A stretch of DNA of 60,772 bases from Patescibacteria group bacterium (lineage in GTDB: Bacteria > Patescibacteriota > Minisyncoccia > UBA6257 > UBA9933): assembly GCA_030017615.1 (NCBI GenBank), contig JASEIG010000003.1:1-60772 (forward strand), read 5' to 3'. The notes under the pieces are model-generated. The model was not told the DNA's origin. It did no database searches and saw only the letters and a program-made list of their open reading frames with translations. The translations under genes were made by a program, and so were the position numbers. Below are positions 1,788 to 56,920 of this stretch, piece after piece; the first letter of the stretch is position 1; each line of letters starts with the position of its first letter.

Positions 1788-1801
1788 AGTTAAAATTATA
1801 T

Positions 1802-2848: not shown

Positions 2849-2858
2849 ATACTTTTTA

Positions 2859-3254
2859 TTATTTTATTCGTTGAAAATCAAATTTAAAATCTTTTTTCTT
2901 TAAGTCGTGTTCCCAAATTCTTATGATTTTCCAATTCATTTTTTTGTAATGTCGATTGACCAATTTGTCCCGCTGCTTATTACCATCTATTTTCGCTTTC
3001 CAAAACTTCTGTCTTGTCGCGGGGAAACGGCAATGTTTCTTGCAACCGTGCCAAAAACAGGAATCAATAAAAATTACAGTTTCATGTTTTTTCAAAACAA
3101 CATCCGGTTTGCCAAAATATTTTGTTGGATTTTTTCTGTACCTAAATCCTTTTTGCCACAACTCTTTCCTAAATGCGATTTCTATTTTTGTGTCTTTACT
3201 TCTAACGGCACTCATTATTTCGCTTCGTTTCTTTTTAGTAAAAACATCCGTCAT
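2859..3254 (-). CDS. vsr: Very short patch repair endonuclease (T:G mismatch endonuclease)
   Basis: KKKRSEIMSAVRSKDTKIE...GKPDVV...IFIDSCFWHGC...ATRQKFWKAKI..N..RD, collinear with the Vsr family. Lies between two C5-MTase genes. Confidence 0.85.
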   Translation of the reverse strand: MTDVFTKKKRSEIMSAVRSKDTKIEIAFRKELWQKGFRYRKNPTKYFGKPDVVLKKHETVIFIDSCFWHGCKKHCRFPATRQKFWKAKIDGNKQRDKLVNRHYKKMNWKIIRIWEHDLKKKDFKFDFQRIK

Positions 3255-3258
3255 AAGT

Positions 3259-4215
3259 TTAAAATTTCAATGATTGTTGAACGGTCGGCCCGTTGAAAGC
3301 AATCATTTTCCCGGATTGTTTATCGTTTGTATATTCCGCAATACATCTCGCAACGAATTCCGCTAATTTTACCGGCACGGCATTGCCGATCATTTGTTCT
3401 AAATCGGTCTTTTTGCCTTCCCAAACGAACTTTTTTGGAAATGTTTGCACCATTGCTCTTTCCATGGTGGTAAGAGGTCGAACTTTTCCATTGATTGGAG
3501 ACGAATCATTTGCATGTCCATTATAACCTTTTGGGATTGGTCTATTAACCCCCCTTATAGTCGGACTTGGTTCGTCTACGCTGAAAATCGCTCTACGACT
3601 ATAATTTCTTGGATGTCTGTAATAATGCTCGGTATCAAGGGTGTTGCCAAAATAATCCCTGACGGTCATAGGTTTTTCTGATTTATTTTTTTGAAAATAA
3701 TATTCTAAAATATGATCTTCGCCACCCAGCTCTCCGAACATAATAAATCTTTTTCTTGCTTGAGGAACACCGCAATAACTCGCTTCCAGTATTTGATAAG
3801 ATAATCCGTAGCCGGAATCTTTGAAAATTTTTACCGCCTCTTTCAATCTGCGACTTTTGACAATGCGGCCAACATTTTCCATTAAAAAAAACTTTGGCTT
3901 CACTTTTGATATTATTTGAGCATACGCCACAGTTAAATCAGCTCTTCCCAATTCCTCATTTCTTTTACCGGCACTTGAAAAATCTTGGCAAGGCGGCCCA
4001 CCAATGATTATGTCTGGTTTGTATTCGGCGATTTTTTTATGGCTTCTGATGTCGCTTAAGTCCAAATTGATAACATCGTGATCAAAATTTTTTTTGTAGA
4101 TATTTATAGTCGGTTCCCAATTATCAAAAGCTGCAACCACGGAATAACCCGCCTGCATAAAGCCGAGCGAAAGACCGCCGCAACCAGAAAATAAATCTAC
4201 AACTTTGTATTTCAT
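3259..4215 (-). CDS. DNA (cytosine-5)-methyltransferase (second copy, divergent)
   Basis: Motif I DLFSGCGGLSLG, motif IV GGPPCQDFSSAG, ENV, QARKRFI, GNAVPVKL. Confidence 0.9.
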   Translation of the reverse strand: MKYKVVDLFSGCGGLSLGFMQAGYSVVAAFDNWEPTINIYKKNFDHDVINLDLSDIRSHKKIAEYKPDIIIGGPPCQDFSSAGKRNEELGRADLTVAYAQIISKVKPKFFLMENVGRIVKSRRLKEAVKIFKDSGYGLSYQILEASYCGVPQARKRFIMFGELGGEDHILEYYFQKNKSEKPMTVRDYFGNTLDTEHYYRHPRNYSRRAIFSVDEPSPTIRGVNRPIPKGYNGHANDSSPINGKVRPLTTMERAMVQTFPKKFVWEGKKTDLEQMIGNAVPVKLAEFVARCIAEYTNDKQSGKMIAFNGPTVQQSLKF

Positions 4216-4223
4216 AAACTTAT

Positions 4224-5288
4224 TTAATCAAATAACCCTGGCGTGCCCAAAATTACGGAATCAAGTCGCCTTTCTGGGCTAAGCAGATTTTGGCCGCCGC
4301 CAAGAATAATGTTTTTGACCTCTTGTTTTTTAATCCTTGGCATCGTTAATTCTTTACATTTCATAAACGGATAAGACACTCGACCGCTGACAGCAAAGGC
4401 TTTATCATTTTTGGTATTATATGAAAGCTCGTCAATAACTTTTTTATGGTTGACTTTGCCGTCACTAGAGTGATCCAAAAGCATTTTGGCAAGCCAAACG
4501 ACGGATCTTGTTTGTCTGGTTATTTTGTCGTTATCTTTTCTAAGTTCGCCCTTAACAACTTTCAAGAATAATTGCGCGAAAGCAAAATCAGACCAAATAA
4601 AAACATCAAATGCGTTGTCGCTTAACATTTGCGATTTGCCGTTTGTTTTCCAAATAGGTTGTAAAATCAATGGAGTTTGTTTTTCCAATCTGTCGGACAA
4701 AATTTTATCTATCAGTTGGCCCATTAAAGGCAAATATGGAACGATATTTGCCCCGTGCGTCCAATCGGATATTTTGTTAAGCGGTTTTAAGATGTTTTTG
4801 AAAAATTTTCTGTCTTCTTCCAATGACAAGATAATACTCAAGGCCATATAAACTATGGTGTCGGGGCGAACAACGATTTCACAGCCAAATTTATCGTCGG
4901 TTAAACGGCAAGTTGAATTATCAGGCAAAGCAGTCAATTTTATTTCTATCCCTTTAAGACAATTTCCGTTTTTCGAGTTTATCGTTACCAAATCTATCCT
5001 GGGCAAATTATTTACAACAAGTTTTTGAAACGGCGAATAATCACTTTCAAACGAGAAAAATAAATTTGGATCGTCATATTTTAATCCCAGCAATTCATTT
5101 GGATCCAAATAATCATGCAACACTTCCGAGCTTCCGTTTAATTTAAGATATTTCAATTTCAGATTTCTGCTCGCCATATAACAAACAAGCGAAGCGGGAA
5201 AAGACGAATTAAATTGATTCTTTCCCCATGTTTCTTTTTGGGTAAAATCTCGGTTTGAATTTGTTATTCCAAATAAACTTGGTTTCAT
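4224..5288 (-). CDS. Putative type II restriction endonuclease (PD-(D/E)xK); family not identifiable by eye
   Basis: Sits between the C-protein-like HTH gene and the MTase genes. Candidate catalytic motif PRIDLV-x13-EIKL (D...ExK). No other recognisable domain. Confidence 0.5.
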   Translation of the reverse strand: MKPSLFGITNSNRDFTQKETWGKNQFNSSFPASLVCYMASRNLKLKYLKLNGSSEVLHDYLDPNELLGLKYDDPNLFFSFESDYSPFQKLVVNNLPRIDLVTINSKNGNCLKGIEIKLTALPDNSTCRLTDDKFGCEIVVRPDTIVYMALSIILSLEEDRKFFKNILKPLNKISDWTHGANIVPYLPLMGQLIDKILSDRLEKQTPLILQPIWKTNGKSQMLSDNAFDVFIWSDFAFAQLFLKVVKGELRKDNDKITRQTRSVVWLAKMLLDHSSDGKVNHKKVIDELSYNTKNDKAFAVSGRVSYPFMKCKELTMPRIKKQEVKNIILGGGQNLLSPERRLDSVILGTPGLFD

Positions 5289-5292
5289 AAAA

Positions 5293-5487
5293 TTATTTTA
5301 TTAAATCTTCAATGGGAACATTTAACGCCTTGGCGATTTTTTTAAGCGTATCGACTGTCGGGTTCTGCTGTTTGCCCGCCTCTATATTGATTATCGTATT
5401 ATTGGAAACATCGGCAAGCCGCGCCAGTTTTTCCTGCGACAAGCCCAGTTTTTCTCTTAATCGCTTTATTTTACTTGACTCTACCAT
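5293..5487 (-). CDS. XRE-family HTH protein (R-M controller / C-protein-like)
   Basis: 64 aa. LGLSQEKLARLADVSNNTIINIEAG is a classic HTH_3 pattern. First gene of the R-M operon, 4 nt upstream of the REase candidate. Confidence 0.75.
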   Translation of the reverse strand: MVESSKIKRLREKLGLSQEKLARLADVSNNTIINIEAGKQQNPTVDTLKKIAKALNVPIEDLIK

Positions 5488-5505
5488 ATTTGAATAGTAA
5501 TATTA

Positions 5506-5520
5506 AATTGTGGTATAATT
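5506..5520 (+). promoter_or_regulatory. Extended -10 promoter AATTGTGGTATAATT, half of an inverted repeat with 5542-5555
   Basis: 15-mer identical to the one 8 nt upstream of eno (49698-49712). ATTGTGGT (5507-5514) is mirrored by ACCACAAT (5542-5549), giving face-to-face promoter-like or operator-like sites between the two HTH genes. Confidence 0.4.
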
Positions 5521-5586
5521 AGTATATGTTCAAACTTCGCAACCACAATATAATATTACCAAAATATTTGGAAATAGTAAAGAAAA

Positions 5587-5654
5587 AAGGGAGTTCCTTG
5601 TCGTTGCCCTTGCCCCAACCCACCCGTGCGCGGGCAACGACAAGGAATTCCCTT
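5587..5654. repeat. 23-bp stem hairpin (1 mismatch, 22-nt GC-rich loop), related to the GC-rich repeat family
   Basis: aagggagttccttgtcgttgccc (5587-5609) pairs with gggcaacgacaaggaattccctt (5632-5654). The left arm cttgtcgttgccc resembles cttgccgttgcgc at 23277-23289. Confidence 0.6.
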
Positions 5655-5761
5655 TTGCTTGAATAAGTATTTTGAAATTTAGTATTATTGTAATTGATGA
5701 AAGGTAAAAGATACTTTTTAACCTATACAATATAGTATAATAGTATATCCTGTTATAGGCT

Positions 5762-5977
5762 ATGTCAAATAATAATCCCCAGTCAAAAATCGGAAAAAAC
5801 ATTAAGAAATTGCGCCAAGATGAGGGCATCTCACAAGATCGCTTGTCCAAGCTGGCTGATTTGTCGCTTAATACCGTTGTTGCGGTAGAATCGGGCGTAA
5901 ACCCAAATCCTACCATTAAAACACTGACCAAAATTGCCAAAGCGTTAGAAGTCGGCGTTGATGATTTGATCAAATAA
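5762..5977 (+). CDS. XRE-family HTH protein, paralogue of 5293-5487
   Basis: 71 aa, ISQDRLSKLADLSLNTVVAVESG. The C-terminal half aligns with the other HTH (NPT(V/I).TL.KIAKAL.V...DLIK). Stop codon lies 4 nt before the P-type ATPase start. Confidence 0.75.
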   Translation: MSNNNPQSKIGKNIKKLRQDEGISQDRLSKLADLSLNTVVAVESGVNPNPTIKTLTKIAKALEVGVDDLIK

Positions 5978-5981
5978 TTTT

Positions 5982-8666
5982 ATGATGCAACAACTTTTAT
6001 GGCACACCAAAACAATTCCAGAGATTCTCAATACGCTCCACTCGCATGAACACGGCTTAACTAAAAAAGAAGCGAAGTACCGCCTTAGAGAATACGGCCC
6101 CAATAAATTGCCGGAAGGCAAGGTAGACAGCTTGTCCATTATTTTTTTTCGCCAATTCCAAAGCCCGTTGATCTATATCCTTCTTGCGGCAAGCCTGATT
6201 GTTTTTGCGATGAAAGAAGTGATTGACGGCGGCATTATTCTTTTTGTTCTTTTATTCAACGCCGTTGTTGGGACGATTCAAGAAGGAAAAGCTCAAAACA
6301 CCCTTTTGGTGTTGAAGAAATTCGTGGAGACAAATGCCACCGTGCTTCGAGATGACAAAGAGCTTATCATCCCCGATTCAGAAGTGATACCGGGAGATGT
6401 TCTTGTATTACTGGAAGGCGATAAGGTGCCGGCTGACGGTAGAATCGTTATTTCTCATAATCTCAAGATAGATGAAGCGTCTTTGACCGGTGAATCTGAA
6501 CCGATGCATAAAATCGCCGAAGTTTTAAAACAACCTGATCTTCCGACTGCGGAGCAGAAAAACATGGTTTTCAAAGGCACGCATATTGTTGCCGGAAGCG
6601 GCAAAGCAGTTGTGGTGGGCACCGGGCTTAACACCACTGTCGGCAAGATCGCCAAAGAAATCGCGGCGATTGACACGGAAATACCGCTGAAAGCCAATAT
6701 CCGTTATCTCTCGCGTCTTATTATCGTCGCTGTCGCAAGTATCAGCGTCTTGCTCTTCTCGCTCGGCATTGTGCTTGGAAAATCTTTCAAGGAAATGTTT
6801 ACTACGGTGGTTTCCCTTTCAGTTTCTATTATTCCCGAAGGATTACCTATTGTAGTTACGCTTGTGCTCGCCACAGGTGTGTGGAGAATGTCAAAGCGCA
6901 ATGCGCTTGTGAAGAAATTGCAAGCGGTTGAAGCCTTGGGACAAGCGCGCGTAATTGCGGTGGACAAAACTGGAACTATTACCAAAAACGAACTCGTGAT
7001 TCAACGAGTATATGTTGACGGCAATTTTTTTGAAATAGGCGGTGTTGGCTATGAACCAAAAGGAGATATTCATCTTGGAGAGAACATTATTGATCCCCTC
7101 AATCATTCTGAACTTCTTTTTGCCGGCAAAATTGCCGCTTTCTGCGCCAATGCCCATGCCGCCTATTATCCAGAAAATAAAAAGTGGCAAGTATTTGGCG
7201 ATCCCACCGAAGCGGCGCTTGCGGTATTTTCCGAAAAAATAGGTTTTCGCAAAGATGACTTAGAGCGCGAATCTCCCAAAATAGCGGAAGTCCCGTTTGA
7301 TTACAAAACAAAATATCATGTAACCGCGCATAGCGTTGACGGACAAGTGTTACTCACTGTAGTCGGCGCGCCAGAAGGTGTGCTGGGATTATCTTCAAAA
7401 AGATGGGGACAAAATGCTCTTCATCAGCTTTCTAAAAAAGACAAAGAGAATCTGGAGTCCCTATTCTTGGAGATGTCGCAAGAAGGACTCCGCGTATTGG
7501 CTCTGGCAATTAAAGAGAACGCGCCAAAAATCATCGGCCAAGAAGACATTCGCGATCTTGCTTTTGTCGGGTTTGTGGGCATGAAAGACGCGCTCCGCCC
7601 GGAAGTTAAAGACGTAATGCAAAGAGCGGCTTCAGCCAGTATTCGTGTAGTTATGATTACCGGAGATCATAAACTTACCGCTCAAGCCATCGCCAAAGAA
7701 GCAGAAATATATCGCGACGGAGACGAAACGCTTACAGGTTTTGACATCGATTCGATTTCTGATGAAGAGCTGTCTCAAAAACTTGACAAGGTTTCTGTGT
7801 TCGCGAGGGTAACGCCGGAACATAAACTACGCATCATCAATGCCTACCGCAGACGGGGCGAGGTGGTGGCTATGACTGGAGACGGCGTGAATGACGCGCC
7901 GTCGCTTGTGGCGGCGGACCTCGGCGTGGCGATGGGAAAAATTGGCACCGAAGTCGCCAAAGAAGCCTCTGATATCGTGCTCTTGGATGATAACTTCGGA
8001 AACATTGTTTCAGCGGTGGAAGAAGGCCGAAGCATTTACAAAACGATCAAAAAAGTCATCCTCTACTTATTTTCAACGAGTGTTGGCGAAGTGCTCACTA
8101 TTGCCGGAGCATTGTTTCTTGGCTATCCACTCCCTATTTTGGCGGCGCAAATTATCTGGCTAAACTTTGTCACCGACGGATTCCTGGATGTGGCGCTTGC
8201 CATGGAGCCAAAAGAAGAAGGGTTGTTGCGAGGCAATTTTGAACGGCCGAAAAAGTATCTTGTTGACAAACTCATGGCGCAACGGATGTTTGTAATGGCT
8301 GTTCCGATGATGATCGGGACCCTATTCCTTTTCAAAGATTATTATGAAATCGATTTAGTAAAGGCTTGGACGATGTCGTTGACGACACTCGCGGTATTTC
8401 AGTGGTTTAACGCCTGGAACTGCCGGCATGAATCAAAATCCATATTCCAGATGAATCCATTTTCCAATAAATTCTTGGTCGGAGCGACCGCGATTATCGT
8501 CTTTTTGCAGATGCTTGCGATTTATAATCCCCTCATGCAAAAAATCCTCCATACCGCAGAGATTTCGCTCTCCGAATGGATGCTTATTATTCCCGTGGCG
8601 GCCTCCATTGTTCTTGTCGAGGAAATAAGAAAATTCTTTTATCGAAGAAAAGTTACGACATTATAA
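5982..8666 (+). CDS. Cation-transporting P-type ATPase (P2, Ca2+-ATPase-like)
   Basis: DKTGTITKN phosphorylation site, MITGDHKLTA, TGDGVNDAPSL hinge, N-terminal cation_ATPase_N-like segment, about 10 TM segments. Confidence 0.9.
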   Translation: MMQQLLWHTKTIPEILNTLHSHEHGLTKKEAKYRLREYGPNKLPEGKVDSLSIIFFRQFQSPLIYILLAASLIVFAMKEVIDGGIILFVLLFNAVVGTIQEGKAQNTLLVLKKFVETNATVLRDDKELIIPDSEVIPGDVLVLLEGDKVPADGRIVISHNLKIDEASLTGESEPMHKIAEVLKQPDLPTAEQKNMVFKGTHIVAGSGKAVVVGTGLNTTVGKIAKEIAAIDTEIPLKANIRYLSRLIIVAVASISVLLFSLGIVLGKSFKEMFTTVVSLSVSIIPEGLPIVVTLVLATGVWRMSKRNALVKKLQAVEALGQARVIAVDKTGTITKNELVIQRVYVDGNFFEIGGVGYEPKGDIHLGENIIDPLNHSELLFAGKIAAFCANAHAAYYPENKKWQVFGDPTEAALAVFSEKIGFRKDDLERESPKIAEVPFDYKTKYHVTAHSVDGQVLLTVVGAPEGVLGLSSKRWGQNALHQLSKKDKENLESLFLEMSQEGLRVLALAIKENAPKIIGQEDIRDLAFVGFVGMKDALRPEVKDVMQRAASASIRVVMITGDHKLTAQAIAKEAEIYRDGDETLTGFDIDSISDEELSQKLDKVSVFARVTPEHKLRIINAYRRRGEVVAMTGDGVNDAPSLVAADLGVAMGKIGTEVAKEASDIVLLDDNFGNIVSAVEEGRSIYKTIKKVILYLFSTSVGEVLTIAGALFLGYPLPILAAQIIWLNFVTDGFLDVALAMEPKEEGLLRGNFERPKKYLVDKLMAQRMFVMAVPMMIGTLFLFKDYYEIDLVKAWTMSLTTLAVFQWFNAWNCRHESKSIFQMNPFSNKFLVGATAIIVFLQMLAIYNPLMQKILHTAEISLSEWMLIIPVAASIVLVEEIRKFFYRRKVTTL

Positions 8667-12643: not shown

Positions 12644-13429
12644 ATGCCTAAATTGATTGACGCGCATATTCATGTTCAATTTCCGCAATTTAATAAAGAT
12701 CGCGATGAAATCATAAAAAGGGCTTTTGATAACGAAATTTGGATAATAAATGCCGGAGCTGACTATAAATCGTCCGTAAAAGCCGTTGAACTTTCTCAAA
12801 AATATCCAAACGGCGTTTTTGCTACTGTTGGCCGGCACCCGACGGCAAAAGAAACTTATGATTTCCAATATAACAAGTTTTTAAATTTGGCAGAAAATAA
12901 AAAAGTCGTGGCTATCGGCGAATGCGGTCTTGATTACTACTATAATCCGCAGACTAACGCTGAAAATATTGAAAATCAAAAAAGATTATTTATAGAACAT
13001 ATAAAATTGGCAAAAGAAGTAAAAAAACCTCTAATGATTCATTGCAGAGAAGCATTTCCCGATTTAATCAAAATCCTAATTGCTAATTACCAATTACTAA
13101 TTGCCGATCGTCCCGGTATTTTCCATTTTTTCACCGGCGCTTTAAATGATGCGAAGAAACTTTTAGAAATGGGATTTTATTTTACTTTTGGCGGTTTAAT
13201 CACTTTCAATCGTGAATTTGATGAAATAATAAAACATATTCCGATGGACAGGATTTTAACCGAAACCGACGCGCCTTATGTCGCGCCCGCTCCTTATCGG
13301 GGACAAAGAAACGAGCCGGCTTATGTGATTGAAGTTGCAAAAAAAATGGCAGAAATAAAAAACATTTCTTTTGAAGAAATTGCCAAAATCACCATTGAAA
13401 ACGCCAAGCGAATTTTTAATATTTTCTGA
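12644..13429 (+). CDS. TatD-family metal-dependent hydrolase
   Basis: DAHIHV start, GECGLDY, HCR, HFFTG and ETDAPY motifs. Confidence 0.85.
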   Translation: MPKLIDAHIHVQFPQFNKDRDEIIKRAFDNEIWIINAGADYKSSVKAVELSQKYPNGVFATVGRHPTAKETYDFQYNKFLNLAENKKVVAIGECGLDYYYNPQTNAENIENQKRLFIEHIKLAKEVKKPLMIHCREAFPDLIKILIANYQLLIADRPGIFHFFTGALNDAKKLLEMGFYFTFGGLITFNREFDEIIKHIPMDRILTETDAPYVAPAPYRGQRNEPAYVIEVAKKMAEIKNISFEEIAKITIENAKRIFNIF

Positions 13430-16734: not shown

Positions 16735-17493
16735 ATGAAAAAAAAGATTATTAAATTTGACGCCATTACAATTTTCCCCGAGGCTTTTAGTTCTTATTTA
16801 AATGTTTCTATTATCAGAAGAGCTATCAAAAACAAGTTAGTTTCAGTAAAATTTCACAATCTCAGAAAATTTGCCAAAGACAAACGCAAAAAAGTGGATG
16901 ACAGACCCTATGGCGGAGGACCGGGGATGGTGCTTAAAACCGAGCCGATTGTGCGCGCGGTTTTAAAAGCAAAAAGCAGAAGTAAAAAAGAAAAAATTGT
17001 AGTCGTTTTATTTTCGCCTGAAGGCAAGCAATTTAATAACAATCTTTCCGCTAAACTTTCTAAATATGATCGGGTTATTATGATCTGCGGCCATTATGAA
17101 GGAGTGGATAGGCGAGTAGAGCTTGTGCTTAAAAATTTAAAGATTAAAATTGAAAAAATTTCTGTCGGTCCGTATGTTTTAACCGGCGGAGAATTGGCGG
17201 CTATGATTTTAATTGACTCCGTTTCCCGTAAAATTCCTGGAGTGCTTGGCAAAGAAGAATCTTTAGAAGAAAAAAGACATGGTATTGGGGTTGAGACTTA
17301 TACCAGACCCAGCACTTTAAAATATAAAGGCAAAAAATATTCTGTTCCCAAAGTTTTAATTTCCGGCAATCATAAAAAAATAGAGGAATGGCGTGCTAAG
17401 AATAAGAAACTGACAACTCACAACTCCGACGCAAGGTCGGAGCTCCAACAGAATTGTCGGAGCCAACAACCTGCAATCAAAAAACCTGCATAA
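16735..17493 (+). CDS. trmD: tRNA (guanine37-N1)-methyltransferase
   Basis: FDAITIFPE...DDRPYGGGPGMVL...CGHYEGVD...GGE. Confidence 0.9.
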   Translation: MKKKIIKFDAITIFPEAFSSYLNVSIIRRAIKNKLVSVKFHNLRKFAKDKRKKVDDRPYGGGPGMVLKTEPIVRAVLKAKSRSKKEKIVVVLFSPEGKQFNNNLSAKLSKYDRVIMICGHYEGVDRRVELVLKNLKIKIEKISVGPYVLTGGELAAMILIDSVSRKIPGVLGKEESLEEKRHGIGVETYTRPSTLKYKGKKYSVPKVLISGNHKKIEEWRAKNKKLTTHNSDARSELQQNCRSQQPAIKKPA

Positions 17494-17554
17494 ATAAAAG
17501 GTTTTTTGAACGACATCTTGCAATTTTTTGCCATATCTGATAATATCCATTGAA

Positions 17555-17821
17555 ATGTTAACTAAGAGGAAAAAACAGACTATTATTAATGACCATGGAG
17601 TCCACAAATCCGATACCGGCTCTACCGAGGTCCAAATCGCGCTTTTAACCAAACAAATCACCGAACTCACAGGCCATCTTAAAAAGCATGCCAAGGACAA
17701 TCATTCCAGAAGAGGTTTATTAAAAATGGTGGGGAAAAGAAAAAAACTGCTTGATTATTTATCTAAAACCAACGTAAAAAGCTACGAAAAACTGATTAAG
17801 AAACTCGGACTAAAAAAATAA
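17555..17821 (+). CDS. rpsO: 30S ribosomal protein S15
   Basis: [27 protein letters not shown]. The ATG at 17555 gives an 88-aa protein; the track ORF starts at an upstream TTG. Confidence 0.9.
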
Positions 17822-17861
17822 CGCGATGTCAATATACGAATGCGTACTAATGATGCAAATA
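17820..17861. repeat. Left arm of a 42-bp inverted repeat enclosing the NYN gene
   Basis: aacgcgatgtcaatatacgaatgcgtactaatgatgcaaata is the reverse complement of 18525-18566 except at one position, which becomes a G-U pair in plus-strand RNA. Overlaps the rpsO stop codon. Confidence 0.85.
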
Positions 17862-17935
17862 GCAACGAATAAATCAATTCATATTTATTGGTATAATTCG
17901 TATAAATGTAAATTAGTATCGCAACAGCGTAAGTT

Positions 17936-18448
17936 ATGAGGCACAAAGACCAAAGAATAGGAATTTTTATAGACGTTCAAAATCTCTATCATTCCGCAAA
18001 AAATTTTTATCATGCAAAAATAAATTACCGTGAATTGGTAAAAGTTCTTATTGCTAATCGCCAACTTATCAGAGCATTAGGTTATGTCGTAAAAAGCGAA
18101 ACTTTAGGAAGCGAGGAAAAAGGAGAGCAATCTTTTTTTGGGGCCCTTGAAAAAGCGGGGATTGATTTAAGGATAAAAGACCTTCAAATTTTTCCGGGCG
18201 GAATGAAAAAAGCCGATTGGGATGTTGGAATGGCGGTTGACGCCATCAGAATGTCGGAATTTTTAGATGTTGTTATTCTTGTTACGGGAGACGGTGATTT
18301 TATGCCTCTTCTTGATTATTTGAAATGGGGGAAAGGCAGAATTGTTGAAGTCGCCGCTTTCGGAAGAAATACTTCCGCCAGACTTAAAGAATCCGCCGAT
18401 GTTTTTATAGATTTGGGAGAAATGCCAAGAATGTTGTTAAAAAAATAA
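17936..18448 (+). CDS. NYN-domain (LabA/DUF88-like, PIN-fold) putative ribonuclease
   Basis: IGIFIDVQNLYHSAK...DVGMAVDA...LVTGDGDF is the NYN acidic-residue pattern. Own extended -10 at TTGGTATAAT (17888-17897). Confidence 0.8.
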   Translation: MRHKDQRIGIFIDVQNLYHSAKNFYHAKINYRELVKVLIANRQLIRALGYVVKSETLGSEEKGEQSFFGALEKAGIDLRIKDLQIFPGGMKKADWDVGMAVDAIRMSEFLDVVILVTGDGDFMPLLDYLKWGKGRIVEVAAFGRNTSARLKESADVFIDLGEMPRMLLKK

Positions 18449-18524
18449 ATTATGCGATACTAAATATACTAATCCATACGAATTATGCTAATATATGCGA
18501 ATCAATTTTAATTTTATTCGCAGT

Positions 18525-18566
18525 TATTTGTATCATTAGTACGCATTCGTATATTGACATCGCGTT
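18525..18566. repeat. Right arm of the 42-bp inverted repeat enclosing the NYN gene
   Basis: tatttgtatcattagtacgcattcgtatattgacatcgcgtt. Ends 12 nt before the pnp ATG. Confidence 0.85.
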
Positions 18567-18578
18567 ATTTTGTCATTA

Positions 18579-20771
18579 ATGGATCTTAATAAAAAAGAGT
18601 TTCAAATAGAAATTGCGGGCAAACCGCTCACAATCACAGTCTCAAAATTAGCCGAACAGGCAAACGCCGCCGTTATCGCGCAATACGGAGACACCACCGT
18701 TTTAGCCACAACGGTAATGGGCGCGAAAGACAAAGAAAATATTGATTACCTTCCTCTGGTTGTTGACTATGAAGAAAGATTTTACGCCGCCGGGAAAATT
18801 ATCGGAAGCAGATTTATTCGCCGCGAAGGAAGGCCTTCTGAAGACGCGGTATTATCCGGCCGCCTTATAGACAGAACAATCAGACCTCTTTTTAACCATA
18901 GCATAAGAAGAGATATTCAGGTTGTCTTGACAGTTCTTTCTTACGACGAACAAAACGATCCGGATTTTGTGGCTCTTTTTGCCGCCTCAACGGCTTTAAT
19001 GATTTCCGACATTCCTTGGAATGGCCCCGTGTCCGGAATAAAAATGGCAAAAATGAAATCGGGTGAATTAATTTTAAATCCGGAAAACGAACAAATTATT
19101 GAAAAAGAAAAAATCGTTTTTGAAGCGTTCATTGGAGGGACCGAGAATAAAATAAACATGATTGAACTTTCCGGTTATGAAGCCCAAGAAAATGAAGTGG
19201 TTGAATCTTTTGCAACGGCGCATTCGGAAATTAAAAAAATGACTGAATTCCAAAAAGAAATTGTGAAAGAAATCGGCAAACCGAAAGCCGAAGTGAAATT
19301 AAAAGAAATTAATCCGGAACTTAAGAAAAAAGCGGCTGAATTTATAAATGGAAAATTAGAACCTGCTGTTTATACTAAACATAAAACTGAACAGCATAAA
19401 AAAATTGAAGAACTTAAAACAACCCTTAAAGAATATTTGGTTGAATCTGGCGCGGAAGATGTCTTGTGGATTGAAAATTTTTTTGAAGAGGAAATTGACG
19501 CGATTATCCATAAAAATATTTTAGAAAAAGAATTAAGGCCGGACGGCAGAAAACTTGACGAGGTCAGATCCTTGCACGCGCAAATAGGATTATTTAAACG
19601 CTTACATGGTTCAAGTTTATTTATCAGAGGAGGCACACAAGCGTTGGTTGTAACCACATTGGCCGCTCCCGGAGCCGAACAGCTGGTTGAAACTATGGAA
19701 GCGTCTTCCAAGAGAAGATTTATGCTCCATTATAATTTCCCGCCTTACTCAACGGGAGAAATAGGCAGAATGGGCGCTCCCGGAAGGCGTGAAATCGGGC
19801 ACGGCGCTTTAGCTGAAAAAGCTATTAAAGCTGTACTCCCGTCGCAAGAAGAATTCCCCTACACCATCAGGGTTGTTTCCGAAATCCTTGCTTCAAACGG
19901 TTCTTCTTCAATGGCCACAACTTGCGCCTCTTCTCTTTCGCTTATGGACGCCGGCGTCCCGCTTAAAAAACATGTTGCCGGAATCGCGATGGGAATAATT
20001 ACCGACCAACAACCGACCCCGCTTTCTTCGGGGCAGGCAACCGACCCCGCTTTCTTTGTGGCAGGCAACCGACAACCAAAACATAAGGTATTGACCGATA
20101 TCCAGGGGCCGGAAGACCATTACGGCGATATGGATTGCAAAGTTGCCGGGACTGATAGCGGAATCAATGCCATACAAATGGACGTGAAAATAAACGGGAT
20201 TACTTCTGAAATACTTAAGGAAGTTTTAATTCAGGCTAAAAAAGCCAGATTGGAAATTCTTGATGTTATGAACTCGGTCATTTCCAAACCTAAAGAAAAA
20301 GTTTCCGAATACGCGCCTGTGGTTGCGGTTTTTGAAATAAACCCCGAACAAATCGGGGAGGTTATCGGACCCGGCGGGAAAATAATAAACGGAATTATTA
20401 AAGATACGGGAGTTTTTTCAATTGACATAGAACAAAATGGAAAGATATTTATTGCTGGCTCCGATAGCGAAAAAGTCGGCAAAGCGTCCTCTTTTATCCA
20501 ATCTCTTACGAAAGAATTTAAAATAGGCGATATAGTTGAAGGAGAAGTTGTAAGAATTTTGGAATTCGGAGCGATAGTTGATATTGGCGGCGGAAAAGAC
20601 GGAATGATTCATGTTTCCGAACTAAAAAACGGATTTGTAAAAAAAGTTGAAGATGTCGTGAAAATTGGAGATTTTGTCAGGGCAAAAGTGATAAAAACAG
20701 ACAATGGAAAATTGGGGCTTTCAATAAAAGCGCTCTCCATTCCGGAAGAGGAAGAAAGTAACCGCGGATAA
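18579..20771 (+). CDS. pnp: Polyribonucleotide nucleotidyltransferase (PNPase)
   Basis: Two RNase PH domains, GDMDCKVAGT, C-terminal KH (GPGGKIINGI) and S1 (GDIVEGEVVRILEFGA). ATG at 18579 preferred over the TTG at 18570. Confidence 0.9.
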   Translation: MDLNKKEFQIEIAGKPLTITVSKLAEQANAAVIAQYGDTTVLATTVMGAKDKENIDYLPLVVDYEERFYAAGKIIGSRFIRREGRPSEDAVLSGRLIDRTIRPLFNHSIRRDIQVVLTVLSYDEQNDPDFVALFAASTALMISDIPWNGPVSGIKMAKMKSGELILNPENEQIIEKEKIVFEAFIGGTENKINMIELSGYEAQENEVVESFATAHSEIKKMTEFQKEIVKEIGKPKAEVKLKEINPELKKKAAEFINGKLEPAVYTKHKTEQHKKIEELKTTLKEYLVESGAEDVLWIENFFEEEIDAIIHKNILEKELRPDGRKLDEVRSLHAQIGLFKRLHGSSLFIRGGTQALVVTTLAAPGAEQLVETMEASSKRRFMLHYNFPPYSTGEIGRMGAPGRREIGHGALAEKAIKAVLPSQEEFPYTIRVVSEILASNGSSSMATTCASSLSLMDAGVPLKKHVAGIAMGIITDQQPTPLSSGQATDPAFFVAGNRQPKHKVLTDIQGPEDHYGDMDCKVAGTDSGINAIQMDVKINGITSEILKEVLIQAKKARLEILDVMNSVISKPKEKVSEYAPVVAVFEINPEQIGEVIGPGGKIINGIIKDTGVFSIDIEQNGKIFIAGSDSEKVGKASSFIQSLTKEFKIGDIVEGEVVRILEFGAIVDIGGGKDGMIHVSELKNGFVKKVEDVVKIGDFVRAKVIKTDNGKLGLSIKALSIPEEEESNRG
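20010..20077 (+). repeat. 28-bp direct tandem repeat (about 2.4 copies) inside pnp
   Basis: caaccgaccccgctttcttcggggcagg / caaccgaccccgctttctttgtggcagg / caaccgacaacc. The unit length is not a multiple of 3, so copies are read in different frames (QPTPLSSGQATDPAFFVAGNRQP). Confidence 0.85.
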
Positions 20772-23246: not shown

Positions 23247-23261
23247 TTTTAATTATAAAAT

Positions 23262-23442
23262 GAAGCTCACATGGGTGCTTGCCGTTGCGCAACCAATGCG
23301 GCGGAATGTGGCGTGTCGCCATAGGCTATACTGACGCCGCGCGAAATCCGCCAAAGCGCTCCTCTACTTCTCGAACTTCGGAGGGCCGCTATGCACAGAC
23401 ATTCACAGCTTTACAGTCATAATCTTCTGCGAAGGCGGATAG
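23262..23442 (+). repeat. GC-rich structured repeat element, copy A (full length)
   Basis: The 3' ~105 nt align with 44536-44640 and 49548-49653. Shared blocks: GCGAAATCCG, AAGCG, CCGCTAT, CATTCA, TCTTCTGCGAAGGCGGATA. Two helices show compensatory changes between copies. Confidence 0.7.
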
Positions 23443-25809: not shown

Positions 25810-25850
25810 CTTTTAGGTTTTAACTTTTAGGTTTATAATGTATTTAAATG

Positions 25851-25990
25851 CCCGGTAACATTACTTTAAAGTTTTCCAACTAAACTGGAAAAATTAATGA
25901 AGCTGGGTTTTAATTTGCGGGAAATATAAAACATTATCCGAACTCAAATAAATTTGTTAAAATTTATTCAGTTAAAGTAATGTTGCCGGG
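25851..25990 (+). repeat. ~140-nt element with ~20-bp terminal inverted repeats (copy 1)
   Basis: cccggtaacattactttaaag (25851-25871) pairs with gttaaagtaatgttgccggg (25971-25990). Its 3' ~45 nt are near-identical to 44209-44253. Confidence 0.65.
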
Positions 25991-25991
25991 T

Positions 25992-27005
25992 ATGATTAAT
26001 AAGGAAAATTTTTTATCTGAAAACATTTTTGAAAAAAATATCTCAACCGAGCCCTTAAGAGACGGTTTTGGGAGAGGTCTGTTAAAATTGGGGATGAAAA
26101 ATCCTGAAGTTGTTGTAATCTCGGCGGATTTAAAGGAATCAACCAGATGTCATTGGTTTGCGGAAAAATATCCCGAAAGATTTATTGAAACAGGCGTTGC
26201 CGAACAAAATATGGCGGCAATCGCCGCGGGCTTGGGAATTTCGGCGAAAATTCCTTTTATTTCTTCATACGCCGTGTTTTCTCCCGGCAGAAATTGGGAA
26301 CAAATAAGAACAACAATCGCGTACAATAATTCCAATGTAAAAATAGCCGGACATCATGCGGGAGTTTCCGCGGGGCCGGACGGAGCGACTCATCAGGCGA
26401 TTGAAGATATCGCCATAATGCGCGCGATGCCGAATATAAAAATAATCGCGCCTTGCGATTCTATTGAAGCGGAAAAAGCGACTATTGCTTCAATTAGTGT
26501 TTGGGGGCCGATGTATTTAAGATTCGCCCGCGAAAAAACTTCTGTTCTAACCGCTGAAAAAACAAATTTTACGCCCGGCAAAGCTTATATAATGTTTGAC
26601 ACCTCGTCTGGCTCAGCGCGGAAAGAGAAAAAACCCCAAGTTTTAATAATCGGAGCGGGACCGATTCTCTATAACGCGCTTCTGGCGGCCAAAGAACTGG
26701 AAGATGAAAAAATAGGAACCATTGTTTTAAACTCCCACACCATTAAGCCGATTGACGATAAAAAAATAATTGAACTGACAAAAAAATGCGGGGCGGTTGT
26801 AACCGTTGAAGAACATAATATACTGGGCGGGTTAGGAGGAGCCGTATCCGAAGTTTTGGCTAAAAATTATCCCGCGCCGATGGAATTTATCGGCATCAAA
26901 GATGTTTTTACGGAAAGCGGAAATTATGAACAACTTCCGGAGAAATACGGTCTGGGAGTGAAATCAATCATATCGGCGGTTAAAAAAGTTATTAAAAGAA
27001 AATAA
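25992..27005 (+). CDS. Transketolase, C-terminal (pyrimidine-binding) subunit
   Basis: GVAEQNM motif and transketolase C-terminal domain pattern. ATG at 25992 (MINKEN) preferred, because the track start at 25980 lies inside the repeat arm. Confidence 0.85.
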   Translation: MINKENFLSENIFEKNISTEPLRDGFGRGLLKLGMKNPEVVVISADLKESTRCHWFAEKYPERFIETGVAEQNMAAIAAGLGISAKIPFISSYAVFSPGRNWEQIRTTIAYNNSNVKIAGHHAGVSAGPDGATHQAIEDIAIMRAMPNIKIIAPCDSIEAEKATIASISVWGPMYLRFAREKTSVLTAEKTNFTPGKAYIMFDTSSGSARKEKKPQVLIIGAGPILYNALLAAKELEDEKIGTIVLNSHTIKPIDDKKIIELTKKCGAVVTVEEHNILGGLGGAVSEVLAKNYPAPMEFIGIKDVFTESGNYEQLPEKYGLGVKSIISAVKKVIKRK

Positions 27006-33248: not shown

Positions 33249-33728
33249 TTATTTGGTGTCTGGAATTCGTTTTTTATAATTTATTGCGTCGCATATTTCT
33301 TTCCCGCTCACCGGTGTTCCTTTGGGACCGACTATTTTCAGCCCATTAAATTGCTTAGGGTTGTGCGAAGCGGTAATCATTATGCCTCCGGAAGCCTTAT
33401 GTTTATTCACCAGAAAGTAGAGCATAGGAGTAGTAATGAGACCCGCGGGTAGAATTATGAATGATGAATTATGAATTACGGTTTTTTTCTTATTTCTAAT
33501 TTCTAATTCATAATTCTTAATTCCCTTTATCACGAAGTAATAAAGCGCTGGAGAAGAAAGCCGCGCGTCGTAGCCTATGATAAATTTTAATTTTTTAGTT
33601 TTTAGTTTTAAATTATTGCGGAAAAATTTGATAATTTTAGGCGTTAATTCTGCGACAATTCGCTCGTTTATTTCAGAGGGATAAATCCCGCGAATATCGT
33701 AAGCCCGAAAAATAGCATCAGGTATCAT
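33249..33728 (-). CDS. Phosphoglucomutase/phosphomannomutase domain I only (truncated; possible gene remnant)
   Basis: FRAYDIRG...GYDARLSS...GGIMITASHNP (catalytic Ser loop), but the ORF stops after ~159 aa; domains II-IV are absent. Carries an in-frame repeat insertion. Confidence 0.6.
   Translation of the reverse strand: MIPDAIFRAYDIRGIYPSEINERIVAELTPKIIKFFRNNLKLKTKKLKFIIGYDARLSSPALYYFVIKGIKNYELEIRNKKKTVIHNSSFIILPAGLITTPMLYFLVNKHKASGGIMITASHNPKQFNGLKIVGPKGTPVSGKEICDAINYKKRIPDTK
33451..33524. repeat. Heptad-periodic imperfect palindrome inserted in frame in the PGM fragment
   Basis: agaattatgaatgatgaattatgaattacgg - t7 - cttatttctaatttctaattcataattcttaattcc. Units of 7 nt (gaattat / tttctaa). 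Encodes KNYELEIRNKKKTVIHNSSF, absent from canonical domain I. Confidence 0.7.
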
Positions 33729-42576: not shown

Positions 42577-43272
42577 TCACAAATTAGGTTTTTCTAATAT
42601 GTGCAACGCGTCTTTTGCCGCCTCTATTTCCGCTTCTTGCTTTGAAAAACCCTTGCCTTGTCCGGCAAATTCATTTCCGAAATAAACTCCAACATTGAAT
42701 ATTTTTTGATGATCTGGTCCTTCTTCTTCCAATACTTCGTATCTCGGGGTTATCTTCATCCGTTCCTGGATAATTTCCTGCAAAAGACTTTTGGGGTCTT
42801 TGTATGTTTTATTTTTGATAATTTCGGGAAGCTGGCTTAATATGTTTTTCTTTATGAATTTGGCCGCGGTCTCATATTCCTTATCCAGATAAATTGCTCC
42901 GATAAGAGATTCAAAAGCGTTTGCTAAAATAACTTCTTTGGCGCGGTCGGTATCCCGCGCTTCGCCTTTTGAAAGAAAAATAAACTTGTCAAGTTTTATT
43001 TCTTTGGCAAGTTTTGCGAGTATCTGATAATTAACCAGAGCCGCTCTTATGTTTGTGAGCTCACCCTCCGGGTAATCGGGATATTGGCGAAAAAGATTTT
43101 CCGTAACAGCTAATTCTAAAACCGCGTCGCCTAAAAATTCCAGCCGCTCGTTGTGCGGAATTCCCCACGAAGGGTTTTCGTTGATATAAGACCTGTGCGT
43201 AAGAGCTTCTTTTAAAAGATTTTTATTTTTAAACTCTACGTCTATTCTGTTTTCCAGTATTGAAAAATCCAT
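42577..43272 (-). CDS. rnc: Ribonuclease III
   Basis: ERLEFLGDAVLEL signature plus a C-terminal dsRBD. Confidence 0.9.
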   Translation of the reverse strand: MDFSILENRIDVEFKNKNLLKEALTHRSYINENPSWGIPHNERLEFLGDAVLELAVTENLFRQYPDYPEGELTNIRAALVNYQILAKLAKEIKLDKFIFLSKGEARDTDRAKEVILANAFESLIGAIYLDKEYETAAKFIKKNILSQLPEIIKNKTYKDPKSLLQEIIQERMKITPRYEVLEEEGPDHQKIFNVGVYFGNEFAGQGKGFSKQEAEIEAAKDALHILEKPNL

Positions 43273-43285
43273 TTAGCACTAGAGT

Positions 43286-43361
43286 AATCGCGAATATACA
43301 AATAATTTTTAATATACAAATCAAATTCGTATATTTGCGTTTGATTCGTATATTCGTGAAT
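43286..43361. repeat. Cluster of ATTCGTATAT-type palindromic motifs immediately upstream of rnc
   Basis: aatcgcgaatatacaaat (43286-43303), attcgtatatttgcg (43325-43339), attcgtatattcgtgaat (43344-43361). Same core as the arms flanking the NYN gene and as 53949-53987 and 56421-56461. Confidence 0.65.
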
Positions 43362-43368
43362 ACTCCAA

Positions 43369-43797
43369 TTATTTTTCTATCTTTTCCAATTCTTTGTAAA
43401 CCGTTCCCAAAACCCCATTGACAAATTTTCCGGAATTTTCGCCGCCAAAATTTTTTGCAAGTTCAATCGCCTCGTTTATCGCCACTTTTTCGGGAACTTC
43501 ATTATGGTCGGCGTAAATCAATTCATAAAGCCCTATCCGTAAAACATTTCGATCCACAATCGGAATTTGCTCCAGTGGCCATTGCGGCGCCGCTTTTCTG
43601 ATGATGTCGTCAATTTCTTTTAGATGAGTGATTACGCCGTTTATTAATTTCCACGCAAATTCCGGTTCGTCAATGCCGAGACCAAACTCATTCAAATTTC
43701 TTTCTATCGTTTTAAAAAGGTCTTCTTGATGCTTGTAAAAATCCCATTCGTAAAGAGACTGGAGAATAATGGAACGTATTAAGTGTCTGGTAGCCAT
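43369..43797 (-). CDS. nusB: Transcription antitermination factor NusB
   Basis: [19 protein letters not shown]...; 142 aa all-helical NusB pattern. Confidence 0.85.
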
Positions 43798-53846: not shown

Positions 53847-53948
53847 TTACCAATTCTATCATAATCTAAAATAGTATTGAAAGAAGTATTTGCGAATAAC
53901 ATTTGCCTGCCGGCAGACAGGCAAATCAAAAACAAATATGCTAGTGTC

Positions 53949-53987
53949 CGAATTCGCGTTATTAAAATTAATTCGTATATTCGCGAT
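53949..53987. repeat. ~40-nt repeat cgaattcgcgttattaaaattaattcgtatattcgcgat (pair with 56421-56461)
   Basis: About 37/40 identity with 56421-56461. Contains the ATTCGTATAT core. Lies in the divergent gpmI / 54054 intergenic region. Confidence 0.7.
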
Positions 53988-54053
53988 TACTTCTTTGATT
54001 TTGTGTTCAAAAATTTGTATTATTAACTTAATTACAAACTTAATGGACGAATT

Positions 54054-56382: not shown

Positions 56383-56420
56383 TCACCAACACACAAATCA
56401 AACGCAAATACACAAATATA

Positions 56421-56461
56421 CGAATTCGCGTTATTAAATAAAAATTCGTATATTCGCGAAT
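56421..56461. repeat. ~40-nt repeat cgaattcgcgttattaaataaaaattcgtatattcgcgaat (pair with 53949-53987)
   Basis: Together with the upstream atatacgaat (56416-56425) it forms a 10-bp hairpin with attcgtatat (56444-56453). Ends 3 nt before the rpsK ATG. Confidence 0.7.
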
Positions 56462-56464
56462 GCT

Positions 56465-56920
56465 ATGGGAAAAAAGAAAATTATACAAAAAACTGACGCA
56501 GAGGTAATCAAGGAAAGCAGTAATCTTGAAAAAAATATAGCCGAGGCGTCTATAAAAGTAAGCGCGTCTAAAAAAATTGAAAACGGAAAAATTTTTATAA
56601 ACGCCACTTACAACAATACCATTATCACCGCTACTAATAAAAACGGAGATGTTTTGGCTTGGGTTACCGCCGGAGGATTGGGATTCTCCGGCCCCAAAAA
56701 AGCCACTCCTTTTGCCGCTTCCAAAGCTGTCGCGGCGATTGCTGAAAAATTAAAGAAAATCGGCTTGGCTAATGTAGAAGTTATCGTAAAAGGAGTCGGT
56801 TCCGGCAGGGATTCGGCAATCAGGTCGCTTGCCAATCAGGGGTTTAATATTGTGTCATTAAAAGATATGACTCCGATTCCGCATAACGGACCCAAACCCC
56901 CGAAGGCGAGAAGAATATAA
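56465..56920 (+). CDS. rpsK: 30S ribosomal protein S11
   Basis: G.IFINATYNNTIITATNKNGDVLAW.TAG..GF.G.KK.TPFAA. Confidence 0.9.
   Translation: MGKKKIIQKTDAEVIKESSNLEKNIAEASIKVSASKKIENGKIFINATYNNTIITATNKNGDVLAWVTAGGLGFSGPKKATPFAASKAVAAIAEKLKKIGLANVEVIVKGVGSGRDSAIRSLANQGFNIVSLKDMTPIPHNGPKPPKARRI

Follow-up and report, generated by a model that had tools for sequence, protein, structure and literature searches.

Why a small nuclease-family gene between rpsO and pnp should be enclosed by a nearly perfect inverted repeat is the question raised by a 60,772-nt stretch of DNA (here called the window; contig JASEIG010000003.1 of assembly GCA_030017615.1) from a Patescibacteria group bacterium. The original prediction, made from the sequence of the window, offered two answers: that the loop of the rpsO-pnp processing hairpin had been expanded by insertion of a gene encoding an NYN-domain RNase, or that a mobile cassette bounded by terminal inverted repeats had targeted that hairpin. 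Comparison with related genomes leads to a different answer. The inverted repeat is two opposite copies of a dispersed hairpin flanking a long-resident gene, with no inserted cassette. That these two inverted copies around the ancestral NYN gene act as RNA processing or stability signals is judged somewhat probable, and the enclosing repeat itself is probably incidental.

Structure of the inverted repeat around NYN

The features of the locus are listed below. IGR1 is the intergenic region (IGR) between rpsO and NYN and IGR2 is that between NYN and pnp, and both were extracted for each locus compared. In the window, trmD lies upstream and rpsT and ruvA lie downstream of rpsO-NYN-pnp.

17555..17821, + strand: rpsO (ribosomal protein S15; Pfam PF00312, E 1e-34), with its TAA stop at 17819-17821 within the left arm
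17815..17873, + strand: left arm A of the gene-enclosing inverted repeat, 59 nt, 93% complementary to 18513-18571
17822..17923, + strand: IGR1 hairpin element, a lineage-specific copy of the TRCNAAT-unit family, inverted relative to the IGR2 copy and weak in its own fold
17936..18448, + strand: NYN/LabA-like gene, 170 aa (PF01936, E 6e-29)
18453..18565, + strand: IGR2 hairpin element, the conserved orthologous pnp-leader hairpin, with local arms 18463-18508 and 18510-18555
18513..18571, + strand: right arm B, with A (long range, 93%) or 18463-18508 (local, 76%) as partner
18579..20771, + strand: pnp (polynucleotide phosphorylase; Pfam RNase_PH x2, PNPase, KH, S1)

A repeat search placed the two arms 639 nt apart. 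The original description of them holds in its details: the core of the arms (17820-17861 and 18525-18566) is reverse-complementary at 41/42 positions, and the lone difference, G17855 against U18531, gives a G·U pair in + strand RNA. Over the full 59 bp of the A:B helix the only irregularities are 2 G·U, 1 A·C and 1 A·A. The left arm does run over the rpsO stop, as the last rpsO codons and stop (17815-17821, AAAATAA) belong to it, and the pnp ATG at 18579 is 7 nt past the 59-nt right arm and 12 nt past the 42-nt core arm. The inner flanks also remain imperfectly complementary up to the open reading frame (ORF), in blocks at 17871-17903 / 18476-18508 (79%) and 17913-17923 / 18453-18463 (100%). 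When 17822-17923 was aligned with the reverse complement of 18453-18565, 90/102 positions were identical (score 109; the direct orientation scores 39 and the highest of 500 shuffles 29), meaning that almost the entire length of both spacers is able to pair.

In the predicted fold of an 801-nt transcript (17800-18600) the long-range stem appears in both the minimum free energy (MFE) and the centroid structure (-255.8 kcal/mol, z = -11.9), so that, as in a ribosomal RNA (rRNA)-type enclosing stem, flanks complementary around a whole cistron dominate the fold. The A:B duplex was calculated at -125 kcal/mol versus about -54 kcal/mol for both local hairpins summed (-23.5 to -24.5 kcal/mol for IGR1; -30.5 to -31.7 kcal/mol, z -5.2, for IGR2). 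One feature had been overlooked, a local pairing of the right arm with 18463-18508 (46 nt, 76%), which gives the locus three arms rather than two. Matches to a 40-mer from the left arm were found at the two arm positions (0 and 1 mismatch) and nowhere else in the window, where 100 shuffles expect 0; the arms belong to a dispersed hairpin family, as described below. No direct repeat flanking the arms, of the kind left by a target-site duplication, is present in the sequence at the locus. Additionally, rpsO (17810-17821) and NYN (18437-18448) share the identical ending AAAAAAATAA (Lys-Lys-stop) just before their respective hairpin elements, which may be a coincidence or may mark the element's preferred junction.

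NYN is a resident gene of the operon

The 170-aa gene between rpsO and pnp was confirmed by Pfam as carrying an NYN domain (101.8 bits against a cutoff of 24.2 for PF01936). Its DVQN, DWDVG..DA and (T/S)GDGDF motifs align with PDB 2QIP (E 5e-20), the closest solved structure, which is itself annotated 'unknown function'. The domain and the acidic motifs thus place the predicted protein in the NYN/LabA-like PIN-fold nuclease family. Homologues formed more than 100 clusters at 67-81% identity, all with PF01936, and none closer than 81% was present in the protein collection searched. The organism names attached to these clusters were Patescibacteria, Wolfebacteria or 'uncultured bacterium' only. 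On the contigs of five homologues the order is rpsO-NYN-pnp, in many cases preceded by trmD and followed by rpsT and ruvA, which is the arrangement of the window.

A wider sample was obtained by scanning one genome per GTDB species, which gave 80 loci (numbered with the prefix L) from genomes titled Wolfe-, Harrison-, Lipton- and Jorgensenbacteria, Paceibacterota and similar. The nearest named relatives of the group are Wolfebacteria, Harrisonbacteria and Liptonbacteria. By tblastn, S15 lies upstream of NYN and PNPase lies downstream of it, all on one strand, in 77/80 of the loci, and of the three exceptions two are at contig ends and one (L085) gave no tblastn match to rpsO. NYN has the same orientation in every relative, and no presence/absence polymorphism of NYN was seen at the site among the 80 loci. 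Across loci, the identity of NYN to the window protein follows that of rpsO (Spearman 0.56, compared to 0.29 for pnp vs rpsO), and the GC content of NYN (0.374) is that of the window (mean 0.373). A scan of 52/58 long window ORFs detected no transposase, integrase, RAYT or Nop domain.

The gene order rpsO-NYN-pnp is therefore ancestral in this Patescibacteria group. The original prediction had named NYN between rpsO and pnp without inverted repeats in related genomes as the observation that would count against it, and at the level of the family this is what the relatives contain. The other observation that it had named, arms recurring as dispersed repeats, likewise holds at that level. The proposal that the loop of a hairpin was expanded by an inserted RNase gene does not survive, as NYN is there in 77/80 relatives without the enclosing repeat, the hairpin of the relatives stands before or after NYN and never around it, and the window keeps an ordinary local pnp-leader hairpin. 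What does stand of the earlier reading is that the right arm is part of a hairpin just before pnp and that this hairpin is orthologous in relatives; the gene insertion and the mobile cassette do not.

The arms belong to a dispersed hairpin family

The hairpins are built of units of ~10 nt, TRCNAAT followed by 3 nt, that together make up a palindrome. Across the hairpins of many species the 5' arm contains units such as ATACTAAT-TC-ATACTAAT-GA-TAC and the 3' arm contains GTATCATTCGCATGCATTCGTATATTGGCATCGC. A covariance model, R1, was built on an alignment (A1) of 12 hairpins from other species, with the window sequence excluded. RNAalifold predicted 21 pairs for A1 in a 3-3-3-7-5 pattern broken by single mismatches, and 8 of these pairs show compensatory changes. 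R1 matched the window at the following sites:

18455-18563: IGR2, 55.1 bits on the + strand (E 8e-11) and 46 bits on the - strand
17823-17922: IGR1, 35.9 bits (E 3e-6), the two strands about equal
56404-56470: rpsM/rpsK spacer, E 0.004
43285-43357: nusB/rnc spacer, E 0.02
53913-53989: divergent spacer on the side of the iPGM gene, E 0.65

The features to which the last three sites belong are:

42577..43272, - strand: rnc (RNase III; catalytic domain and double-stranded RNA-binding domain; Pfam PF14622, E 4e-41, PF00636, PF00035)
43273..43368, - strand: nusB-rnc spacer hairpin of the TRCNAAT-unit family, the 5' leader of rnc (nusB is at 43369-43797)
56383..56470, + strand: rpsM (S13) / rpsK (S11) spacer hairpin of the TRCNAAT-unit family, recognised by R1 match, sequence, fold and flanking genes
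53913..54004, no strand assigned: a weak and more complex family copy in the divergent spacer between the iPGM gene and the gene at 54054 (R1 E 0.65 to 1.8)

The nusB/rnc and rpsM/rpsK copies share 60/71 nt (85%), and the 53.9-kb copy is identical to the rpsM/rpsK copy at 55/65 nt (85%) in the inverted orientation. The rnc-leader hairpin (43273..43368) folds at -32.6 kcal/mol (z -5.6 to -6.6). Opposite orientations are also seen between IGR1 and IGR2 of the window and between IGR2 and IGR1 of locus L016. The family thus behaves as a dispersed palindrome, with five related spacer sites in 60 kb that form hairpins and occur in both orientations.

Across the NYN loci, R1 (E < 0.01) detected 22 elements in 21 species, with 11 in IGR1, 8 in IGR2 and 3 upstream of rpsO. 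In a second sample of 80 metagenome loci, retrieved with the RNase III protein of the window, R1-type hairpins immediately precede rnc in L102-108 and L117, where rpsK is the gene before rnc, and lie ~1 kb upstream of rnc in L098-100. Hairpins in the nusB-rnc spacer itself are patchy, being strong in the four closest relatives, where they have other unit sequences, and absent in most others. No Rfam family reached its gathering threshold anywhere in the window, and with permissive filters the region 17400-18800 gave one chance-level miRNA match only (E 0.97). The operon and its elements are undescribed in the literature that was found on NYN with rpsO or pnp and on intergenic hairpins of the Candidate Phyla Radiation (CPR).

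Two simpler identities for the hairpins were rejected. The promoter that had been assigned to NYN is present as a motif, TTGGTATAAT at 17888-17897, but there is no -35 box, and for this reason the promoter scan made no call. This motif sits in the hairpin element's own 3' arm, and the supposed sigma-70 promoter TGGTATAAT derives from the element consensus GTATCATTCG. Intrinsic terminators were not called at the hairpins, and a U-rich tract follows only the IGR2 copy of the window and is unconserved in L086, L021 and L032.

Spacers in related operons

The spacers of 79 distinct operons were compared, counting a spacer as structured at dG (folding free energy) ≤ -20 kcal/mol. They divide as follows:

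Structured IGR1 only: 17 of 79 operons
Structured IGR2 only: 16 of 79 operons
Both spacers structured: 11 of 79 operons
Neither spacer structured: 35 of 79 operons

Unstructured spacers are usually just 0-25 nt. A structured NYN-pnp spacer is thus found in 27/79 operons, so that the leader hairpin is not constant wherever the operon occurs. Hairpins orthologous to the pnp-leader hairpin of the window are present in L086, L021, L032, L038, L003, L057 and L001, and the 3' arm of IGR2 is conserved in L086, L001, L021, L032 and L038.

Complementarity between the two spacers was measured at each locus by local alignment of IGR1 with the reverse complement of IGR2. The window scored 123, compared to 33 for L021, 28 for L016, 26 for L022 and no more than 20 for the remaining loci, and shuffled window spacers reached a maximum of 29. 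The runners-up have 24/29 (L021) and 27/30 (L016) identities, with the rest at chance level. The cross-spacer duplex energy of -125 kcal/mol in the window is likewise met elsewhere by -50 kcal/mol or weaker. The enclosing helix is therefore present in none of the 78 other distinct operons, which is not the conservation expected of an rRNA-type stem.

The closest relative for which both spacers were available, L086 (79% NYN identity), has an IGR1 of 25 nt and so is without the left arm. Its IGR2 contains a local hairpin whose 3' arm GCATGCATTCGTATATCGGCGTCGCGG matches the right arm of the window GTACGCATTCGTATATTGACATCGCG. The right arm is therefore ancestral here and the left arm is a lineage-specific addition, so that the pnp-proximal copy is the orthologous one and the rpsO-proximal copy is specific to the lineage.

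Origin of the long-range complementarity

The IGR1 and IGR2 copies (~100-113 nt each) have opposite orientations and are 88% identical. The much better inverted alignment than direct alignment given above shows that IGR1 is an inverted copy of the IGR2 element. Because every such element forms a hairpin on its own, placing two of them in inverted orientation necessarily makes their arms complementary. Once the elements are subtracted the spacers are 12 and 17 nt, which matches the compact junctions of the relatives. The copies have not diverged evenly along their length, with 4 differences and no gaps in the outer 52 columns and 8 differences plus 10 gap positions in the inner 60 (Fisher p = 0.004 with gaps, 0.23 without). 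The near-identical tract also extends 7 nt past the element into the end of rpsO, where AAAATAA pairs with TTATTTT, and L086 is without TTATTTT. It is proposed that the outer ~50 nt were additionally homogenised by gene conversion or template switching between the inverted copies, which would be the simplest route because the tract enters the coding end of rpsO by those 7 nt. To judge from the sequence, the run into rpsO suggests secondary homogenisation or else selection on the helix. The presence of two inverted copies, partly homogenised, is the best explanation of the near-perfect long-range duplex, which would then be a by-product.

Selection on the helix is the explanation that comes closest to competing with this, though it is considered unlikely. 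In that case RNase III would cut the 59-bp A:B helix as a long-range processing stem and excise an NYN mRNA with paired ends; the 3' hairpin of rpsO would be removed, pnp would gain a processed 5' end for autoregulation, and the base of the stem would couple the rpsO stop codon to the pnp initiation region. The arms do cover the rpsO stop codon at one end and stop 7 nt short of the pnp ATG at the other, RNase III is encoded, and the outer part of the stem is better conserved between copies than the inner part. The duplex is also far better double-stranded RNA (dsRNA) than any hairpin of the family, more than twice as stable as both local hairpins summed, and dominant in the MFE and centroid folds. 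However, the helix is absent from the 78 other distinct operons, L086 is entirely without the left arm, and the local IGR2 hairpin has been retained. Recent duplication or conversion would explain the near-identity of the arms, and the two G·U differences alone give no statistical support for selection at the RNA level.

RNA hairpin or DNA palindrome

The level at which the family is structured was examined in an alignment of 23 sequences (A2, MAFFT). RNAalifold predicted no pairs for A2, in which the loop region is full of gaps, and hence the fold of one member was mapped onto the columns and the pairs were counted; the cells counted in this way are phylogenetically dependent. Standard pairs made up 82.5% of cells compared to 77.4% in column shuffles (0/500 reached the observed value), pairing dropped to 28-41% when the partner was slid by 1-3 columns, and both partners had changed in 16/33 pairs. 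For the sense strand of the operon, 71 cells were G·U and 33 were A·C, and G·U was the commoner of the two in 17/23 sequences. There are also conserved asymmetric U·C mismatches at fixed columns. Among copies in operon spacers, 18/19 scored higher on the sense strand, 11 of them being seeds of R1. The covarying pairs, the excess of G·U and the fixed U·C mismatches together favour a hairpin selected in the sense-strand transcript over a plain DNA palindrome.

The contrary explanation, judged still less likely than a selected stem, is that these are selfish or DNA-level palindromes with no RNA function, resembling miniature inverted-repeat transposable elements (MITEs), repetitive extragenic palindromic (REP) sequences or arrays of protein-binding units about one helical turn apart. 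They would have spread into compact junctions and persisted neutrally or as protein-binding sites, and the repeat enclosing NYN would be the meaningless outcome of two insertions. This would account for the patchy presence at orthologous junctions that measure 0-25 nt where the element is absent, the copies in both orientations, the unit spacing of about 10 nt and the several unrelated unit families of the same design in the window. However, one family persists in the operon across species with 20-40% protein divergence, and the ORFs scanned yielded no transposase, RAYT or integrase. G·U cells outnumber A·C cells on the sense strand of the operon, and the conserved asymmetric U·C mismatches disagree with simple DNA palindromes. 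The preference of operon-spacer copies for the sense strand points the same way, though more than half of them are seeds of the model.

Proposed role of the elements

The elements would be transcribed within the operon mRNA and would fold into long imperfect dsRNA hairpins. By analogy, their most likely role is that of intercistronic dsRNA processing or stability signals, probably as RNase III substrates. The window encodes rnc, the rnc leader has a weaker R1 match (E 0.02), and the pnp hairpin is orthologous among relatives, which makes an RNase III-type role reasonable; one hairpin family precedes both pnp and rnc in the window. In this genome the 59-bp nearly perfect (about 100-bp imperfect) long-range duplex would be an alternative to the local hairpins, and according to the predicted energies the A:B helix would be a better RNase III substrate than they are. 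Cutting it would release the NYN mRNA and uncouple rpsO from pnp, and cutting both local hairpins would have the same outcome.

Several points weigh against a role in processing or stability. Transcription, folding and cleavage of the elements are all inferred. The dispersed copies in the window are weak R1 matches (E 0.004 to 0.65), and for a few sequences the orientation used in the G·U comparison was chosen by the model. Hairpins of the family have mismatches every 4-8 nt, which may make them poor RNase III substrates. At 35/79 related operons there is no hairpin at either junction and most nusB-rnc junctions are without any, so that any role must be dispensable or replaceable. The chance of finding both the pnp and the rnc junction among 5 of 57 is P ≈ 0.006, which is a post hoc figure. 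In addition, hairpins (dG ≤ -20 kcal/mol) occur at ~35% of these junctions compared to ~30% of other junctions in the window, and with such similar frequencies the link to pnp and rnc may be partly coincidence. Lastly, the uneven divergence of the two copies fits selection on the outer stem as well as it fits gene conversion.

A more far-reaching version of the RNA-level reading is that hairpins of TRCNAAT units are a class of operon-punctuating RNA maintained by selection throughout the lineage and read by a dedicated nuclease, either RNase III or the NYN protein, with the long-range duplex of this genome gating pnp. This is regarded as improbable. If it is true, the hairpin adjacent to NYN would be the cognate or autoregulatory site of the NYN protein, the duplex would excise the NYN mRNA, and one cis-RNA circuit would join RNase III, NYN and PNPase.

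Two explanations centred on DNA rearrangement fare much worse. It is very improbable that the 59-bp repeats bound an invertible segment that flips NYN between sense and antisense to the operon: the repeats are of suitable length around a ~640-bp segment with the promoter-like TGnTATAAT, but no invertase is encoded nearby, where the neighbours are trmD, rpsO, pnp, rpsT and ruvA, one orientation was assembled, and the orientation of NYN is constant in relatives. Least credible of all is a mobile cassette aimed at the rpsO-pnp hairpin, which would explain terminal inverted repeats (59 nt, 93%) bounding a single gene with a possible promoter of its own and yet is contradicted by the resident synteny of NYN (77/80 related species, without such repeats), its normal composition and rpsO-congruent divergence, and the lack of a NYN polymorphism, a target-site duplication, a repeat of the arms elsewhere in the window and a transposase or recombinase among the ORFs scanned (52/58).

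Comparison with known systems

In E. coli the leaders of rnc and pnp are hairpins cleaved by RNase III and are two classic autoregulatory targets (PMC5371410). The window resembles this arrangement in having a long hairpin just before pnp and after rpsO (18463-18555, z -5.2), another before rnc, and an encoded RNase III. However, no sequence relation to the E. coli leaders was detected by Rfam. The operon here has the additional NYN gene, with the hairpin before NYN, after NYN or absent, and the hairpin belongs to a dispersed family built of tandem ~10-nt units, for which cleavage and autoregulation are predicted.

Correia elements of Neisseria bind RNase III, which cleaves or protects them (PMC2649163). 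Like Correia/nemis elements and REP sequences or bacterial interspersed mosaic elements (BIMEs), the family described here consists of multiple imperfect palindromes in operon spacers, in both orientations and variable among relatives, that are able to create promoter-like sequences. Unlike them, it has arms that are tandem arrays of short units rather than unique terminal inverted repeats around a core, neither a target-site duplication nor (in 52/58 window ORFs) a RAYT-type transposase was detected, and the family is conserved at one operon across many genera, with its copies counted in a 60-kb window.

Short-period palindromic repeats in CPR genomes also recall TIGR arrays, which consist of 36-nt units with edge and loop repeats and variable spacers, lie beside a Nop-domain Tas gene and are frequent in the CPR (PMC12045711). 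This identity was rejected because the repeats here have a period of ~10 nt and lie beside rpsO, NYN and pnp, and because a Nop-domain protein was absent from the ORFs scanned.

The gene-enclosing duplex itself invites a different comparison. RNase III processing stems of the 16S and 23S rRNA precursors enclose a whole functional RNA, and the early mRNA of phage T7 has intercistronic RNase III sites. Here, pairing of flanks that lie 640 nt apart could close a helix of 59 bp or more around a complete cistron, and hairpins stand at successive junctions (infA|rpmJ|rpsM|rpsK|rpsD and rpoA|rplQ) as the T7 sites do. The enclosing helix differs from the rRNA stems in being unique to one genome, in lying around an mRNA and in being predicted from sequence. 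The family differs from the E. coli, Correia and T7 systems in its arms made of short units, its persistence at one operon, a hairpin that shifts around a conserved nuclease gene and, in one genome, a duplex enclosing that gene.

Other hairpin families and features of the window

A second hairpin family, with the units CTTGTAAC and GCTACAAG, occurs at 55733-55809, 55923-56000, 56919-56996 and 58428-58467, at the junctions infA|rpmJ, rpmJ|rpsM, rpsK|rpsD and rpoA|rplQ. The rpmJ (L36) gene, an unlisted ORF of ~38 aa read by eye in the 55744-55962 spacer, lies between two direct copies of this family, and because of this it is likewise enclosed by complementary arms (55775-55802 / 55930-55957, 75%). 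A third family (ATTACCA / TAATTNC repeats) is found at 13067-13106, 33451-33526 and 50082-50121. Its hairpin at 33451-33523 is apparently in frame within the ORF 33249-33728 (159 aa, matching phosphoglucomutase domain I only), and may recall a palindromic element inserted in a coding sequence or mark a broken gene. In relatives, hairpins of the same design with wholly different units (GTAGTCC, TTAGCT, TTTTCAAT, GGCAGAGT and others) occupy the same junctions, as in IGR1 of L001, L006 and L037, IGR2 of L046 and the nusB-rnc spacer of L115. The principle of construction is shared more widely than any single sequence family.

A ~145-nt element is present in two copies (25848-25993 and 44117-44253) with 22-nt terminal inverted repeats (ATGCCCGGTAACATTACTTTAA ... 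TTAAAGTAATGTTGCCGGGTAT) and one 43-nt stretch that is 93% identical between them. One copy follows a gene for a beta-CASP RNase J-like protein and the other is in the divergent spacer between nusB and ruvB. The element looks MITE-like. Two further spacers, 49415-49719 and 23247-23390, are G+C-rich by eye compared to the 37% GC of the window and fold at -89 and -43 kcal/mol, respectively. They gave no Rfam match even at E ≤ 1 and may be unannotated structured RNAs or leaders.

The region 129-5978 is a restriction-modification island with a HindVP-type endonuclease (4224-5288), two C5 cytosine methylases (1802-2848 and 3259-4215), a Vsr mismatch endonuclease (2859-3254) and a GHKL-ATPase protein (129-1787). 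Beside it are two divergent XRE-type helix-turn-helix (HTH) paralogs at about 5289-5490 (- strand) and 5763-5978 (+ strand), with a perfect 25-bp hairpin between them (5585-5656). These genes are the source of a 100-nt, 70% inverted repeat, 5285-5384 / 5886-5985, which had been a candidate for a second gene-enclosing repeat. Since the two divergent genes are paralogous, it reflects coding similarity and is no analogue of the NYN repeat. An apparently duplicated gene pair (231 aa + 142 aa; 42.6-43.8 kb and 45.8-47.1 kb) was also discarded, the pairs being unrelated (rnc/nusB versus yidC/R3H).

Implications

The conserved rpsO-NYN-pnp operon and the hairpin families are more useful leads than the enclosing repeat. 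The NYN/LabA-type gene is uncharacterised and highly conserved, and in many Patescibacteria it holds a constant place in the rpsO-pnp operon. Its fixed position, seen in sequence comparisons, is a strong genomic hint that its product and PNPase act together in RNA turnover. The machinery for RNA decay in these organisms has barely been studied. Their reduced genomes contain families of hairpins assembled from repeats, which occupy junctions that are otherwise very compact, including the leaders of pnp and rnc. If the hairpins are RNase III sites, they would provide a simple punctuation of operon mRNA in the Candidate Phyla Radiation and a set of ready natural substrates.

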